A stretch of 8,824 nt of DNA from a virus (taxonomy: Duplodnaviria; Heunggongvirae; Uroviricota; Caudoviricetes). Positions within the stretch are counted from its first letter, which is position 1, and each line of letters opens with the position of its first letter. The DNA lies in the IMG/VR virus record IMGVR_UViG_2681813234_000007; one strand, given 5' to 3'. A program made the translations under genes and the position numbers. The notes beneath the pieces are model-generated. The model worked only from the letters and a program-made list of their open reading frames with translations. It searched no databases and was not told the DNA's origin. This document shows, one piece after another, positions 4,482 to 8,824 of the stretch.

Positions 4482-4778
4482 ATGGCACAAGGATTACAAT
4501 GCTGGAATAGTGCAGGGGTATTAGTAGTAGATCTCGGTGATTATAACATGCGGTATATGGGTACTTACTCAATTACTGCTACTACTGCATCAAGTTATAC
4601 TGTTACTGTACCCGGAATGAAAACAACAGGGTGGATTGCCTATTACGCACCATCTACGGATGTTTTTAATAATTGGTCTGTTATTTGTAATAATGGTTCA
4701 ATGACTATCATTTATCTACCAACGGGATCACCGTTTGCTGGTACGTATAGTTTCAACGTATATAAGTGGACGGTGTAA
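4482..4778 (+). CDS. small beta-rich tail-associated protein (candidate fibre/receptor-binding accessory), 98 aa
   Basis: AAGGA at 4471-4475, 6 nt before ATG 4482. Composition is rich in T/S/G/Y/N with no long hydrophobic helix. The N-terminal motif GLQCWNSAGVLVVD is shared with the next gene. Position is immediately after the J-like gene. Confidence 0.65.
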   Translation: MAQGLQCWNSAGVLVVDLGDYNMRYMGTYSITATTASSYTVTVPGMKTTGWIAYYAPSTDVFNNWSVICNNGSMTIIYLPTGSPFAGTYSFNVYKWTV

Positions 4779-4779
4779 T

Positions 4780-5436
4780 ATGTCAGGTTTTGAAGTTTAT
4801 AATTCTGCGGGTGCTCTGACGATTGACAGTACTAACAAGTCAATTCTCACAGGTGCTGTTAAGGCAATGGGTACACTGACGGATCAGGGGTACTACACTG
4901 GCTTTACGTGTGCTTTTGGTAATGGTGGTGCTCTTGGCTTCTTGCCACTTGCAACTATCGTGAACAGGAACACTACGCAGTACTGGTTTCAGATACAGAA
5001 AGATGGTGGCTGGTGTTTTCCCGGTGCTGAGTTGTTCCAGCCGGGGATAGGGCGATTCATGACGAGTACGCACACTGCAACGCCTACGTCTGGTTATCTC
5101 GATGTGTTTAATGCTTCTGGTACTTTGATATGGTCTGCTGCATCGGCGGCTACCATGCCCCGTATACAAGGTTTCTTAACCGTACCTGCTGCAACAGATT
5201 TGAGTACTGCAATCACAGTAACAAGCCCTGTTGCTAATCCCTGGTTTTGCTGGTCACAATGTCCGGGTAACTTAAGTGATGATGGGGAAACAATCGGTTA
5301 TTCGGGAATAGTTATTCGACGTAATAGCAGTACTTCATTCAGCTTGCAGTACGTTTCAAAGAACCAGAAAACATATCGTCAGGCAATGGGTAACAATGGA
5401 TTTCAAATTGCATTAGCTACTTTCACCGGATATTAA
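4780..5436 (+). CDS. tail-associated beta-rich protein, paralogous to the preceding gene, 218 aa
   Basis: The ORF track gives 4735-5436, but the ATG at 4780 sits 1 nt after the stop of the previous gene (TAAtATG) and begins MSGFEVYNSAGALTID, matching the N-terminus of the 98-aa protein. The motif recurs internally as DVFNASGTLIWS near residue 108. Confidence 0.75.
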   Translation: MSGFEVYNSAGALTIDSTNKSILTGAVKAMGTLTDQGYYTGFTCAFGNGGALGFLPLATIVNRNTTQYWFQIQKDGGWCFPGAELFQPGIGRFMTSTHTATPTSGYLDVFNASGTLIWSAASAATMPRIQGFLTVPAATDLSTAITVTSPVANPWFCWSQCPGNLSDDGETIGYSGIVIRRNSSTSFSLQYVSKNQKTYRQAMGNNGFQIALATFTGY

Positions 5437-5476: not shown

Positions 5477-5743
5477 ATGGACATTGGTACAATCTTGGCT
5501 CTTATTATTTCTGGCTGTGTACTTCTGTACACAATATTCCGCGACAATACAAAAGATACTGATGGACTACTTACACGTGTTTCAGAACTGGAAACTAAAC
5601 AAGCAGTACAGGAAAGTAGTATGGTGCGTATTGAAGCTGATCAGAATAAGATGCGTGATGCTTTAACTAAACTTGAAAACCAGATTCATGATCTGGATGT
5701 GAAAATTGAAAAAATCATTACCATTCTTGAACAGAAACAATAA
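5477..5743 (+). CDS. membrane-anchored coiled-coil protein, 88 aa (possible lysis-associated protein; function unknown)
   Basis: N-terminal hydrophobic helix (ILALIISGCVLLYTIF) is followed by a highly charged heptad-like segment (ELETKQ...LENQIHDLDVKIEKIITILEQKQ). The gene ends 8 nt before a strong terminator and lies convergent to the endolysin. The Shine-Dalgarno is weak. Confidence 0.6.
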   Translation: MDIGTILALIISGCVLLYTIFRDNTKDTDGLLTRVSELETKQAVQESSMVRIEADQNKMRDALTKLENQIHDLDVKIEKIITILEQKQ

Positions 5744-5750
5744 GAAGAAA

Positions 5751-5780
5751 GGCGATAGTACATAATGCTATCGCCTTTTT
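5751..5780. terminator. bidirectional rho-independent terminator between the convergent 88-aa gene and the endolysin
   Basis: GGCGATAGTA-cataa-TGCTATCGCC forms a 10-bp stem (one G-U pair) with a 5-nt loop, followed by TTTTTG on the plus strand. On the minus strand the same hairpin is followed by TTTCTTCTT. The stop codons of both flanking genes (5741-5743 and 5782-5784) abut it. Confidence 0.8.
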
Positions 5781-5781
5781 G

Positions 5782-6231
5782 TTATTTGTTGGTTAGTACT
5801 GCAATCATTGCATCAACACGATTAGGTGTTTGTTTATACCATAATGAATCTTTAGCCTGTCTGATGGCTTCCGGGTAATCTTTTGCTTTAAGGGCTACTA
5901 ACATCTTTTTGAATTTCTGTACCCCGCCTAAACCTAACTGGAACATCATTATCACAAGAAAATTTTTCCAGTCGTCAGGTAGCCAGATGTTGAGCGTTTC
6001 AACATTATGTATTGCAATAAGTATATCCTGGTCCAGTAGTCTATCTGCTTGCTCAATAGTAATACCATCTGGATACTTTTCACCAACATGTAGTAAATGA
6101 CCGTAGCCAATGGTTTCAAATCCTAGTGAATCTTTGTATGTCCAAAATTTGTTATCGTGAAAGTACTTCAATTTTGTTTGATAAGCGATAGTACCTTCAT
6201 ATTCTTTTAATCTGTCTTTTAGTTTACTCAT
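5782..6231 (-). CDS. endolysin, T4-type lysozyme (glycoside hydrolase family 24 muramidase)
   Basis: 149-aa minus-strand ORF. The translation aligns by eye with T4 lysozyme as I recall it: FETIGYGHLL vs YTIGIGHLL; LVIMMFQLGLGGVQKF vs LINMVFQMGETGVAGF; WYKQTPNRV vs WYNQTPNRA. Equivalents of the catalytic Glu/Asp/Thr are present (E12, D34, T40). AGGT lies 9 nt upstream of the ATG on the minus strand. Confidence 0.93.
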   Translation of the reverse strand: MSKLKDRLKEYEGTIAYQTKLKYFHDNKFWTYKDSLGFETIGYGHLLHVGEKYPDGITIEQADRLLDQDILIAIHNVETLNIWLPDDWKNFLVIMMFQLGLGGVQKFKKMLVALKAKDYPEAIRQAKDSLWYKQTPNRVDAMIAVLTNK

Positions 6232-6282
6232 TAATAAATACCTATAATAAATCTATATAGGGATATTTATTGTGAGAGTTAA
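6222..6282. promoter_or_regulatory. candidate divergent promoter region between the endolysin and the plus-strand operon
   Basis: Plus strand has a perfect TATAAT at 6243-6248 but a weak -35 (TTTACT at 6222-6227, 15-bp spacer). Minus strand has -35 TTAACT (plus coordinates 6277-6282), a 17-bp spacer and -10 TATATA (6254-6259). AT-rich DNA yields such matches easily, so this is tentative. Confidence 0.3.
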
Positions 6283-6721
6283 TAAAGCATGGGAGATGTT
6301 CGATACTGATATGTGGGATATGTCAGAAGTAACAGATGGGAATTACGTCTCGTTTATCTACATTATTCAGTTTCCAGATACTGGCGAGTACTATTTCGGT
6401 AAGAAGCAAATCTATAAAAAAGTACGCGACATAAAGAATTTAAAGGCTACTTCAGTTGAATCGAACTGGCCTGATTATACCGGTAGTAGTAAGTGCGTTA
6501 ATGAAATGATTGATGCCGGAATGCCATACACCAAAAAGATTTTGTACTGTGTCAAATCAGACGCAGAGGCAACGATTTTAGAAACGGCATTGATTAGCTA
6601 CTTTGGTTTACATCCTGACTGTTTAAATAAGGCAATAATGTGTAAGGCACGATTACCAAAGAATCGTTTAGATTTATTTAAAGTACTGCAAGATCTAATT
6701 GATATGTTGGGTGTGAGGTAA
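6272..6721 (+). CDS. GIY-YIG nuclease-domain protein (standalone catalytic domain, EndoII/Seg-like), 149 aa
   Basis: Degenerate GIY-YIG core: FIY (res 28-30), 10 residues, YFG (41-43), Arg52, Glu104 in ILETALI and Asn119. The spacing mirrors my recollection of I-TevI (Y6, Y17, R27, E75, N90). The track start is a GTG at 6272 with AGGGA at 6259-6263; alternative ATG starts at 6296 or 6314 are possible. Confidence 0.6.
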   Translation: MRVNKAWEMFDTDMWDMSEVTDGNYVSFIYIIQFPDTGEYYFGKKQIYKKVRDIKNLKATSVESNWPDYTGSSKCVNEMIDAGMPYTKKILYCVKSDAEATILETALISYFGLHPDCLNKAIMCKARLPKNRLDLFKVLQDLIDMLGVR

Positions 6722-6725
6722 ATAC

Positions 6726-7286
6726 ATGACAAGAATAACGGGTATAGATAACGCCACGAACTATATACAAAAAACAGGAACGAAGTTAGGTAAAAAGTTC
6801 CATGATGAAATCATCAAGCGTTCAAGAGTATTATCTATGAAAGTACAGGCAGATATGAACAATGCCGTAGACAAAGGTGCAGTACCTTTCACTCAACGAT
6901 CAATTCTATTCTTTTATAAAAAGCGGGGTAGTGGGGTTACAGCTACAATCATGGTCAAAGATGTTCAGGCACAGTACTTATATGGTGTACTGGTTGAACA
7001 AAAGGCCATTGATAAATTTGTACCGACTTCAAAAGCAAGACTAACGAAGCAGGGTAACATTAGTGGTCTGAAGAAAAACTTATCAAGTGGACGATACAAG
7101 ATTGTCAAAGGTAAGAACGGAAAAGAACGATTAATAGATACTGCTCAAAAGAAAAAACAAAAGCGTGTAATCGGTCTACGGGAAAGTAAACGCCGTAAAC
7201 TAATTTATGATTTCTATCAGGAAGTGAATGATGGTGTGATGTTAGTAATGAGTGGTATACAGGGAACATTCAAGGTAACAAGATGA
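6726..7286 (+). CDS. hypothetical protein, basic (K/R-rich C-terminal half), 186 aa
   Basis: GAGG at 6714-6717, 8 nt before ATG 6726, which is 4 nt after the previous stop. Its stop overlaps the next start (ATGA at 7283-7286). No TM segment and no motif I recognise. Confidence 0.7.
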   Translation: MTRITGIDNATNYIQKTGTKLGKKFHDEIIKRSRVLSMKVQADMNNAVDKGAVPFTQRSILFFYKKRGSGVTATIMVKDVQAQYLYGVLVEQKAIDKFVPTSKARLTKQGNISGLKKNLSSGRYKIVKGKNGKERLIDTAQKKKQKRVIGLRESKRRKLIYDFYQEVNDGVMLVMSGIQGTFKVTR

Positions 7287-7594
7287 ATTTTGATGAACAT
7301 TATGGTGAACTAACCAGTGAGATTAAACTTGATGGTAATACACCAGAGGCTAATAGTATGCCTATTCATAAATGCTTTCTTGGTAATAAGTTCAAGAAGG
7401 TACTAAAGAGTAAACAGATTAATATCGAGCATTTTATGAATGTTTGCTATGAGAAAAAACAAGATATAACGGACGGTTCAGTACTTGCATGGTCACTACA
7501 AGGTGATGAAATGGATGTGTACGTAATCGAACATAAAAAACTATTCGTTAAGGGAAAACACTTTTGGGTGTATTGCGTGGGGATCATTGAATGA
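7283..7594 (+). CDS. hypothetical protein, 103 aa
   Basis: Start overlaps the previous stop (ATGA) and its own stop overlaps the next start (ATGA at 7591-7594). Scattered Cys/His (C31, H50, C55, H84, H93, C98) do not form a canonical zinc motif. Confidence 0.65.
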   Translation: MNFDEHYGELTSEIKLDGNTPEANSMPIHKCFLGNKFKKVLKSKQINIEHFMNVCYEKKQDITDGSVLAWSLQGDEMDVYVIEHKKLFVKGKHFWVYCVGIIE

Positions 7595-7881
7595 TTGGAA
7601 TGATAATTGATTTAATCAAAACTGGAGTAGGCTTCTTCCAGAAGAAAGAACAAAGTAAGCAAGAGCTGGACGCACAGAACAGCCATGAACAGAACCAGAT
7701 CACACTTGAAGAAACGCGTAAGGGCTTCACTTGGCGACAGGGCTTAGGATGGGTACTGACGTTCATCATTCTATGGAACTACGTCATTGTGCCAGTACTG
7801 GCCTTATGTGGTGTAGTACTCCCCATCGTTCCACTTGATGAGATATGGAAAGTACTGATAATCTTAATCGGCGGGAGTTGA
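7591..7881 (+). CDS. small membrane protein, 96 aa (holin-like architecture, not confirmed)
   Basis: GGGGA at 7579-7583 with coupled ATG at 7591. A short hydrophobic N-terminus and polar linker are followed by a ~45-residue hydrophobic block (GLGWVLTFIILWNYVIVPVLALCGVVLPIVPL...ILIGG) that could form two TM helices. It lacks the charged C-terminal tail typical of holins. Confidence 0.65.
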   Translation: MIGMIIDLIKTGVGFFQKKEQSKQELDAQNSHEQNQITLEETRKGFTWRQGLGWVLTFIILWNYVIVPVLALCGVVLPIVPLDEIWKVLIILIGGS

Positions 7882-8571
7882 TTTGGACTCTCTAAACAAT
7901 ACTCGCCACGAAGTAAGCCATACTGAAGGGAGAATTTGGGTAAGTGCGAAGGCAGGTTTGAAACTCAAATTATTAAATTCCCAATTTTTCTTACGTGCCA
8001 TACCATTTACATCTTGATATGTGTTAATCATTTTATCGCTAATGATAATAAAATTGTAGTAATGTGTTATACATTTTTCAAGTTCGTTAGACTTGTTTGG
8101 ATGTACTTCAATGTCCCAAACTCGTAATATATCTAATTGAGATTTCAATTTAATTAGGTGATCTTTATAATCAGCATGCAAATCTTTAACCTTTGAGTTT
8201 TTACTTTGGTACTCTTTATCGGTGATGTTGAGATCTTTATTACCTAATGTTTCATACATATCATTGATGTAAGTATGTAATATTTCCGCCTTTACTTTCG
8301 CTTCAATAAAGTAACTAATATAAACGTTTGCTTGTTCAAAACCTTTTTCATTAAGTTTTGAATCTAACCATCTATATACTTTAAAAACTGTGATGAATGC
8401 TATTACTGACATTATAGTATCCATGATTGCTGATGTAGTAGAGCTATCATAACCATGAAGTAATAGTAAATCGGAATAAATTGGTATCAATGCACCAATA
8501 GCAAGACATGCAATATGTGAAAATCTTATTTTATTTCTTATTCTTTTTAAATTCACTTTCAAAGCATCCAT
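7864..8571 (-). CDS. membrane protein with two N-terminal TM helices and a ~170-aa C-terminal domain, 235 aa; function unknown (candidate accessory/moron gene)
   Basis: A long ORF in the most AT-rich part of the window, where chance ORFs of this length are unlikely. Hydrophobic segments are FSHIACLAIGALIPIYSDLLLL and IMDTIMSVIAFITVFKVY, and the remainder is K/N/D/E-rich. No clear Shine-Dalgarno precedes the ATG (plus 8569-8571). The 3' end overlaps the convergent 7591-7881 gene by 18 nt. Confidence 0.72.
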   Translation of the reverse strand: MDALKVNLKRIRNKIRFSHIACLAIGALIPIYSDLLLLHGYDSSTTSAIMDTIMSVIAFITVFKVYRWLDSKLNEKGFEQANVYISYFIEAKVKAEILHTYINDMYETLGNKDLNITDKEYQSKNSKVKDLHADYKDHLIKLKSQLDILRVWDIEVHPNKSNELEKCITHYYNFIIISDKMINTYQDVNGMARKKNWEFNNLSFKPAFALTQILPSVWLTSWRVLFRESKSTPAD

Positions 8572-8584
8572 ATAAATTTATTAG

Positions 8585-8613
8585 AAAGCCTGTATCTAGC
8601 ACAGGCTTTTTTT
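8585..8613. terminator. hairpin with flanking A- and T-tracts between the two minus-strand genes; canonical terminator in plus orientation
   Basis: AAAGCCTGT-atctagc-ACAGGCTTT stem followed by T7 (8607-8613) on the plus strand. On the minus strand it is preceded by A7 and followed by TTTCTAATAAATTT. It lies directly between the stop of the 8615-8824 gene and the start of the 7864-8571 gene. Confidence 0.55.
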
Positions 8614-8614
8614 G

Positions 8615-8824
8615 TTACCAATCCCAACTAACAGTAATATCCAACCCACGAAGGTTAGTATGTTCTGTACGCGTCGCTACGAGAACTATATCACCAGTTT
8701 CTTTCGAGACAATATCAAAGACTTCAATTTCAGTTTGACCCATTGTACCTTTCGTTCTAAAACTCTTTCTAACGTAGGTATAGTTCTCTTTTGGATAATT
8801 ACTTTCAAACAGCGATTCAGTCAT
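8615..8824 (-). CDS. 3' portion of a minus-strand gene, probably 5'-truncated by the window edge; product unknown
   Basis: Open minus-strand frame from the window edge to a stop at 8615-8617. The ATG exactly at 8822-8824 may be internal. The translation is beta-rich and polar (…IEVFDIVSKETGDIVLVATRTEHTNLRGLDITVSWDW) and I do not recognise it. Confidence 0.5.
   Translation of the reverse strand: MTESLFESNYPKENYTYVRKSFRTKGTMGQTEIEVFDIVSKETGDIVLVATRTEHTNLRGLDITVSWDW

Follow-up and report, generated by a model that had tools for sequence, protein, structure and literature searches.

The 8,824-nt stretch of DNA from IMG/VR virus record IMGVR_UViG_2681813234_000007 (Caudoviricetes), the whole of which is called the window here, contains a block of four plus-strand genes at positions 6272–7881 that encode proteins of 149, 186, 103 and 96 amino acid residues (Table 1). 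In a previous reading made from the letters alone (the sequence-only reading) this block was described as a tightly coupled operon for a GIY-YIG-like nuclease, two proteins without recognisable character and a small membrane protein, and was proposed to be a phage conflict module (defence or anti-defence) or, equally, a module for host-DNA degradation or lysis timing. The table of open reading frames (ORFs) and the sequence agreed exactly with the four ORFs of that reading, with a 4-nt gap between the first two genes (6722–6725) and with ATGA start/stop overlaps between the second and third (7283–7286) and the third and fourth (7591–7594). A Shine-Dalgarno sequence for the 186-aa gene, GAGG, was found at 6714–6717, and the GTG start of the 149-aa gene is supported by relatives, which carry ATG-AGA-ATT-AAT at the same position. 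The block is divergent from the minus-strand lysozyme gene, 40 nt separating both start codons, and convergent with a minus-strand gene for a 235-aa protein with two transmembrane segments (7864–8571), with which its 3′ end overlaps by 18 nt. The 186-aa, 103-aa and 96-aa proteins are all "hypothetical" in the current annotation.

Table 1. Features of the window that are discussed in the text.
Feature	Positions	Strand	Description
88-aa protein	5477–5743	+	N-terminal transmembrane helix and coiled coil; last gene of the tail operon
Strong hairpin (putative terminator)	5746–5780	.	15-pair stem, 5-nt loop, plus-strand T-run after it and A-rich run before it; inverted repeat I1
Lysozyme	5782–6231	-	Soluble T4-type endolysin; Pfam Phage_lysozyme 7e-10, phrog_13211 5e-38
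Divergent spacer	6232–6271	.	40-nt palindrome; mirror-image ribosome-binding regions TAAATACCT ... AGGGATATTTA round an AT-rich centre
149-aa GIY-YIG gene	6272–6721	+	GTG start
186-aa gene	6726–7286	+	Very basic product; predicted divergent member of the lambda gpZ/Neck1 superfamily
103-aa gene	7283–7594	+	Soluble small beta-barrel product; always 3′ of the 186-aa gene
96-aa gene	7591–7881	+	Membrane protein, holin candidate of the GTA_holin_3TM type

Exact-protein look-ups mapped the window to Enterobacteriaceae chromosomes, just upstream of the host genes mipA-yeaE-yeaD-gapA, and the window is therefore the right arm of an integrated lambda-like siphovirus prophage beside mipA. Read from the left towards the block, the gene order was terS, terL, a 176-aa gene, portal, a 608-aa protease-capsid fusion, a 107-aa gene, a 130-aa gene, a 946-aa Peptidase_S74 fibre, the major tail protein, chaperones, tape measure, distal tail genes, J, then 98-, 218- and 88-aa genes, the lysozyme gene and the four-gene block. 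The product of the 107-aa gene matched Pfam Phage_attach, the gpFII family, over its full length (8e-4).

Related loci were collected from IMG/VR (80 loci) and from genomes (9 loci) with the 186-aa family and added to loci gathered earlier, about 105–106 in all, and their ORFs were searched with a profile of each window protein; many of these loci are near-identical, so they do not amount to 105 independent observations. One carrier of this prophage is Scandinavium lactucae V105_6 (L099, 98% identity). The order J, (98, 218), 88, lysozyme, GIY-YIG, 186, 103, 96 was kept in more than 95% of the loci, and it persisted down to 36–37% identity of the 186-aa protein and at other integration sites. 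The median pairwise ratios of nonsynonymous to synonymous substitution rates (dN/dS) were 0.08 for the GIY-YIG gene, 0.12 for the 186-aa gene, 0.14 for the 103-aa gene and 0.08 for the 96-aa gene. Because of these low ratios and of the order kept in about 105 related prophage loci, the four ORFs are real genes under purifying selection and not chance ORFs. Gene junctions in the relatives were tight too, most commonly −4, −1 or +4 nt, some apparent overlaps being overestimated since the ORF caller takes the longest ORF. The GIY-YIG gene was present in 102 of the 106 loci and in 102 of the 103 intact ones, the four absences being one internal deletion (locus L041), one truncated contig and two distant phages; where the 103-aa gene had seemed to be absent, a diverged version with 110 residues could be recognised. 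A megablast search with the region among 50,697 phage records gave no match, and sensitive blastn recovered lysozyme fragments alone.

The block order is thus near-invariant, whereas the downstream 235-aa gene occurs in 21 of the 106 loci only, and the four genes are therefore core to the prophage lineage while the cargo lies downstream. The single coupled unit put forward in the sequence-only reading is borne out by this comparison of gene neighbourhoods, in which the four genes travel together. Its description of the block as inserted between minus-strand genes is true of the flanks in the window and misleading for the family, where the downstream minus-strand gene is mostly missing and the lysozyme gene, minus-oriented in most otherwise syntenic relatives, is plus-oriented in about 17 (L015, L016 and about 15 IMG/VR loci). 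A plus-oriented lysozyme gene adjoins the GIY-YIG gene with a 3-nt gap, and in a Serratia relative the lysozyme, GIY-YIG, 193-aa, 113-aa and 98-aa genes are all co-oriented after a terminator, with gaps of 0–3 nt. An invertible segment or switch was considered for the lysozyme gene and rejected; because no inverted repeats flank the gene, the two orientations look like evolutionary inversion variants.

The 186-aa protein is very basic, as had been noted from the letters (isoelectric point 10.4; 40 Lys and Arg against 14 Asp and Glu). Direct searches with the window copy yielded a weak match to phrog_1924 "minor tail protein" alone (0.0095) and no significant Pfam or PHROG match. Its close family is tiny: from 1.84 billion proteins a profile recovered only 71 representatives, and this subfamily has the particular motifs PFT, QAxYL and GNI. 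Distant representatives of the family (library-wide E values of 1e-5 to 1e-3) matched phrog_1924 with E values up to 1e-48; several of them matched phrog_27 "tail completion or Neck1 protein", one over the full length at 1e-8, and two matched Pfam Minor_tail_Z. In profile–profile comparison the close family aligned with the distant phrog_1924 group (99.4%, E 2e-21, 165 columns), and the phrog_1924 group aligned with lambda gpZ (87.7%, E 3e-6, N-terminal 72 residues). The best structural match of the 186-aa protein was the tail-completion protein of SaPI1. Lambda gpZ, with 192 residues, is of similar length, a predicted long N-terminal helix followed by a small sheet may be common to both, and the prophage is otherwise lambda-like; the likeness to gpZ (Pfam Minor_tail_Z, phrog_27) is one of profile-level homology through the sister family phrog_1924, the 186-aa protein being very divergent and its gene lying between lysozyme and holin genes at the end of the late region.

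Tail-completion genes are usually located between the head-completion and tail-terminator genes (PMC11784142). The corresponding neck interval of the prophage contained the gpFII-like 107-aa gene and the 130-aa gene only and no gpZ-like gene, and the 176-aa gene beside the portal gene showed no similarity to the 186-aa family. The 186-aa gene was found outside the interval between head closure and tail terminator, after the tail tip and lysozyme genes. Since the profile chain leads through phrog_1924 to lambda gpZ and the canonical slot is empty, the simplest reading is that the 186-aa protein would be the gpZ-type tail-completion protein of this phage, encoded out of place. The sequence-only reading had stated that this protein matches nothing known and had named a confident annotation of the middle genes as ordinary structural or assembly proteins as evidence against a conflict module; for the 186-aa gene the profile chain to the lambda gpZ/Ne1 tail-completion superfamily largely provides such an annotation.

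Several points weigh against this assignment. The match to lambda gpZ is limited to the N-terminal 72 residues, and HK97 gp10 gave no match to the 186-aa family; nor did the 186-aa and 103-aa families give any signal against lambda FII, lambda U, HK97 gp7 or HK97 gp10. A sequence search of solved structures with the 186-aa family returned nothing useful, and the same was true of such searches with the 107-, 130- and 176-aa neck-region proteins. Lambda W gave no signal against the 176-aa protein, and the neck roles of the 176-aa and 130-aa genes are positional guesses. A tail-completion gene lodged between lysozyme and holin genes is in an atypical position, and the "minor tail protein" label on the relatives is itself an annotation. 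In phage phiNP (L018) the phrog_1924 gene lies directly before terS, after the lysis genes, and in RcRhea (L017), R4C (L112) and S-CBS3 (L113) it stands at the very end of the linear genome, behind the replication genes; these positions before terS or at the right end of the genome would also fit some non-tail function. In the available part of the cryo-electron microscopy report on R4C, 12 virion components are given and the phrog_1924 homologue (gene 049) is not named among them (PMC10276861). A wider partnership of nuclease and tail-completion genes was rejected, because the neighbours of the phrog_1924 gene in R4C, RcRhea and phiNP are without nuclease domains.

The 96-aa protein has an amphipathic N-terminus, a charged linker, a WRQGLGW motif and a hydrophobic C-terminal region of 44 residues (51–94), in agreement with the membrane protein recognised earlier. 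The window copy matched phrog_2024 (4e-11). Ten of its 18 orthologues matched Pfam GTA_holin_3TM at E values up to 0.05 (best 5e-6), and five of the 18 matched phrog_3427 "holin"; the window copy itself reached 0.013 and 16.5 bits against GTA_holin_3TM, below the threshold of 24.8 bits, which speaks against the assignment to holins. RcGTA-type holins (Pfam PF11351 GTA_holin_3TM; phrog_3427) are likewise small proteins with an amphipathic N-terminus, a charged linker, a W-R-x-x-x-G-W motif entering the hydrophobic region and an adjacent endolysin gene. In contrast to them, the 96-aa protein is shorter than the Pfam model, of which it lacks the last part, and shows one long hydrophobic stretch only, enough for two helices at most. 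The N-terminus of the lysozyme is not hydrophobic and has neither a signal nor a signal-arrest-release sequence; as a soluble T4-type enzyme without an export signal, the lysozyme needs a holin. A small protein with a hydrophobic stretch is encoded next to this endolysin in all relatives, and the 96-aa protein is probably the holin that serves it.

For the 103-aa protein an AlphaFold2 model gave a confident small beta-barrel with a predicted local distance difference test (pLDDT) score of 85. The fold of the barrel is of a generic phage neck- or tail-like kind. Foldseek of the model against BFVD gave nothing below 1e-3, searches of Pfam, PHROG and PADLOC gave no family matches, and a head-closure or stopper protein, which would call for a fold match clearly better than that to unrelated beta-barrels and for an otherwise vacant head-closure slot, was not supported. 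The Cys/His-sprinkled character ascribed to the protein earlier is present in its 3 Cys and 5 His residues, yet a metal-binding cluster is not supported: H6 alone is invariant among the orthologues, and zinc binding was rejected because no Cys is conserved. A PilZ domain binding cyclic di-GMP was rejected as well, since the window copy is without any arginine and the RxxxR motif is therefore absent. Signal peptides and transmembrane segments are missing from both the 103-aa and the 186-aa protein. The 103-aa protein could act together with the 186-aa protein, in the virion or during assembly, or could equally regulate the coupled holin from the cytoplasm.

The 149-aa protein matched Pfam PF19835 SegE_GIY-YIG over residues 19–107 (8e-15, 55.6 bits against a cutoff of 25), and its earlier designation as a GIY-YIG-like nuclease is thereby placed above a curated threshold. 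Residues Y30, Y41, G43, E104 and N119 were invariant in 12 orthologues and the YxGSS motif was kept; the expected catalytic Arg is R52 in the window and Lys in most orthologues, in an alignment register set without a match to a solved GIY-YIG structure, as the sequence search of solved structures with this family aligned none. The nearest phage relatives (30–35% identity) are homing endonucleases of T4-like phages with 189–359 residues. With these Seg-type enzymes the 149-aa protein has in common the catalytic core, the GIY/YIG tyrosines, Y-x-G-S-S, Glu and Asn, but it lacks their C-terminal DNA-binding domain: it ends about 30 residues after the core with a conserved C-terminal LNKAIMCKARLPK tail, and the orthologues, of 141–151 residues, have no separate DNA-binding or targeting domain either. 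In further contrast to the Seg-type enzymes, its gene is fixed in a temperate lineage, strongly constrained and coupled to late genes. Stand-alone GIY-YIG nucleases, T4 endonuclease II for example, are presumably of similar size and domain make-up. The gene is not sporadic, and its translation is coupled to that of the next gene and, in relatives with a plus-oriented lysozyme gene, also to that of the preceding one. With a product that ends soon after the core, present in all but one of the intact loci, as constrained as the holin and coupled, the gene does not behave as that of a mobile homing endonuclease, and its product looks like a retained, selected nuclease. In locus L041 (5803–5995), from a metagenomic relative, an in-frame deletion has removed the GIY-YIG catalytic core and left a 39-codon ORF with the N-terminal Trp and the C-terminal LN.A.M.K motif; L041 is a natural nuclease-less variant.

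The Escherichia phage DCP80 (PQ671644, L001; record of 140,978 bp) was the only sequenced phage with a homologue of the 186-aa protein (30% identity), and its J homologue is 29% identical over about 1100 residues. After J, DCP80 encodes a protein with a transmembrane segment and a coiled coil, a T4-type endonuclease VII, a 57-aa ORF, the 183-aa homologue and a 99-aa protein, with the lysozyme gene two genes further. The unannotated 57-aa ORF (8774–8947), between the endonuclease VII and 183-aa genes, is similar to the C-terminal half of the holin (BLASTP 2e-4; pairwise BLASTP was used since hhalign against the holin alignment would be circular, the ORF being a row of it), and the product of the 99-aa gene aligned with the 103-aa family (hhalign 49%, E 2e-4). 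The DCP80 endonuclease VII has both the catalytic and the dimerisation Pfam domain and is thus of the resolvase type and not a homing HNH enzyme. A homologue of T4 endonuclease VII (gp49), a packaging-associated junction resolvase, fills the equivalent position in DCP80, although the GIY-YIG protein is of an unrelated fold (endonuclease VII being HNH-like) and the likeness is positional only. That another type of nuclease occupies this position in DCP80 hints, as a lead rather than a result, that the slot may hold a late DNA-processing enzyme. Our best guess is that the 149-aa protein would serve as a late nuclease for DNA that is branched or has not been packaged, and not as a mobile homing enzyme. 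The DCP80 record is filed under Straboviridae/Gaprivervirus despite its lambda-J-type tail tip and siphovirus-like late block, and its classification or assembly looks doubtful.

On balance, the block is probably the terminal late transcription unit of a lambda-like temperate siphovirus integrated beside mipA, devoted to virion completion and lysis, and would then be core equipment rather than a conflict island. The functional steps of the following scheme are all drawn from homology and context. Transcription would start in, or read from, the palindromic spacer shared with the lysozyme gene, or in some relatives upstream of the co-oriented lysozyme gene, and the four cistrons would be translated as a coupled series. 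The basic 186-aa protein would complete the tail at its head-proximal end, touching the tape measure protein and DNA, with the 103-aa beta-barrel most likely as its small virion or assembly partner. The 96-aa holin would accumulate in the inner membrane and, at the trigger time, let the cytoplasmic T4-type lysozyme reach the cell wall. The 149-aa protein may derive from a Seg enzyme, reduced to the GIY-YIG catalytic domain by loss of the DNA-binding domain, its gene now being fixed and under selection in this lineage. The more specific proposal of a domesticated homing-endonuclease domain working as a fixed late DNA-processing nuclease, for concatemer debranching or for clearance of non-packaged or host DNA, and co-translated with the tail-completion protein and the holin, is tentative and has a low probability.

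The position of the 186-aa and 103-aa genes, always between lysozyme and holin genes both in the prophage family and in DCP80, would also suit a lysis cassette that extends from the 88-aa gene through the 96-aa gene, the two proteins being new lysis accessories (for example to disrupt the outer membrane in place of spanins, or to regulate the holin from the cytoplasm) and not virion proteins. The strongly cationic nature of the 186-aa protein, the translational coupling of the 103-aa gene to the holin gene, the phiNP phrog_1924 gene 3′ of lysis genes and the failure to find a recognisable spanin pair or u-spanin in the window are consistent with such a cassette. The profile and fold links, however, put the 186-aa family in the tail-completion superfamily, neither protein has the signal peptide or transmembrane segment noted above as missing, the empty gpZ slot means that the phage needs such a protein from elsewhere, and in R4C, RcRhea and S-CBS3 the homologue follows replication and not lysis genes, so that we regard this cassette as unlikely. 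The lysis role mentioned in the sequence-only reading is partly right, in that it holds for the 96-aa gene, a holin-family candidate beside the lysozyme gene. About as improbable is that the GIY-YIG gene is a selfish free-standing homing endonuclease gene, or its decaying remnant, that stands upstream of unrelated late genes by chance and brings the phage no benefit. The phage proteins nearest to its product are homing endonucleases of T4-like phages, both Seg-type and intron-associated ones, PADLOC returned "HEase" (1e-4) and PHROG the "homing endonuclease" families phrog_7363/314, the catalytic core is deleted in frame in L041, and DCP80 has a different nuclease at this position. Against this stand the missing DNA-binding or targeting domain and the length of 141–151 residues compared with 189–359 in the homing enzymes, the non-sporadic occurrence in the intact loci, a dN/dS as low as that of the holin, the invariant catalytic Tyr, Tyr, Glu and Asn, the coupling to neighbouring genes on one or both sides, and the fact that the DCP80 enzyme is a resolvase-type endonuclease VII with a dimerisation domain and not a homing HNH.

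A conflict module for defence, anti-defence or superinfection exclusion, with the nuclease as effector, the two middle proteins as adaptors and the membrane protein as the fourth component, appears very unlikely. The block does lie near the prophage end, a frequent cargo site, it does combine a nuclease with a membrane protein, and the 103-aa protein is without family matches. PADLOC, however, gave the weak "HEase" match for gene 1, nothing for genes 2–4 and no system matches; the block is invariant in the lineage, with the variable genes (235-aa, 69-aa, methyltransferase-like, DUF2188) downstream of it; genes 2 and 4 have assembly and lysis homologies; and the block is also kept in DCP80 beside its lysozyme gene. 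The defence or anti-defence function considered in the sequence-only reading is therefore not supported for a block that is a fixed core across the lineage, and the terminal late unit for virion completion and lysis remains the preferred interpretation.

The hairpin that follows the 88-aa gene looks like a bidirectional intrinsic terminator closing both the tail operon and the minus-strand lysozyme transcript; in the Serratia relative, with its lysozyme gene on the plus strand, a terminator likewise follows the 88-aa gene. In the divergent spacer the arms of the conserved palindrome are the mirror-image ribosome-binding regions TAAATACCT and AGGTATTTA, and the AT-rich centre holds TATAAT (6245–6250). 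The perfect inverted-repeat arm had a median length of 9 nt in the spacers of 52 distinct relatives (L002–L099), as compared with 5 nt in shuffled sequences (95th percentile 7). The RNA hairpin of the window spacer was calculated at −8.3 kcal/mol, with a median z-score of −2.5 in the family, and in the predicted fold the spacer RNA would hide either Shine-Dalgarno sequence in read-through transcripts; transcripts begun in the AT-rich centre would keep both ribosome-binding sites accessible. The arrangement of the spacer points to putative back-to-back divergent promoters, while the consensus promoter scan was at chance level overall. The 12-mer ACAATAAATATC, located 24 nt upstream of the start codons of both the 88-aa and lysozyme genes, was rejected as a shared promoter motif, as it is not conserved in relatives and is a chance match.

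The 88-aa gene was found in 103 loci, in all of them upstream of the lysozyme gene. Its product has a hydrophobic segment at residues 1–23 and weak PHROG matches to Rz-like spanin and holin families, and its relatives match DUF2730 weakly; it is possibly a lysis accessory, a part of the context rather than a member of the four-gene unit. A 60-codon ORF in another frame (5484–5666) is nested wholly within the 88-aa gene and has a hydrophobic start, a layout that recalls Rz1 in Rz, without a canonical lipobox. Apart from this, the window yielded no recognisable spanin genes. The 98-aa (4482–4778) and 218-aa DUF8377 (4735–5436) proteins encoded 3′ of J have similar N-termini (…NSAG.L..D…) and weak phrog_2427 and phrog_4062 matches in common, their genes, when called as longest ORFs, sharing about 44 nt; the two may be paralogues with an accessory role at the tail tip. 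Further upstream, outside the window (L010:1–5312), the prohead protease and the major capsid protein are encoded by the single 608-aa fusion gene, and the 946-aa Peptidase_S74 fibre gene separates the neck genes from the gene of the major tail protein, where a fibre gene is not usually found.

The variable region between the block and mipA (window 7864–8824 and beyond, L010:17649–19792) comprises the minus-strand 235-aa and 69-aa genes, a methyltransferase-like gene and DUF2188. The 235-aa two-transmembrane protein, present in the minority of loci given above, had a weak PADLOC match to NsnC (0.007). A restriction-modification pairing of the GIY-YIG protein with the downstream gene was rejected, that gene being weakly methyltransferase-like and absent from the Serratia relatives. 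This downstream variable region is the place to look for any conflict gene at the locus.

The block is mostly ordinary, with mild novelty only in the nuclease and in the unusual place of the tail-completion gene. A layout that resembles a conflict module (a nuclease, unknown proteins and a membrane protein) turns out in this lineage to be conserved assembly and lysis equipment, and the finding has corrective value in this respect. Two of the three "hypothetical" proteins can be named with reasonable confidence. The 186-aa family would represent a small unannotated branch of tail-completion proteins that is systematically encoded outside the neck module, with the lysis genes here and just before the terminase genes elsewhere, and, such proteins being poorly understood, a displaced and very basic variant would be a useful comparison point. 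A candidate for the domestication of a homing endonuclease is seen in the Seg-type GIY-YIG core, which has no DNA-binding domain and is fixed, under strong constraint, in a temperate phage. If true, the domesticated nuclease together with the relocated gpZ-type gene would define a previously undescribed "finish-and-exit" late module.

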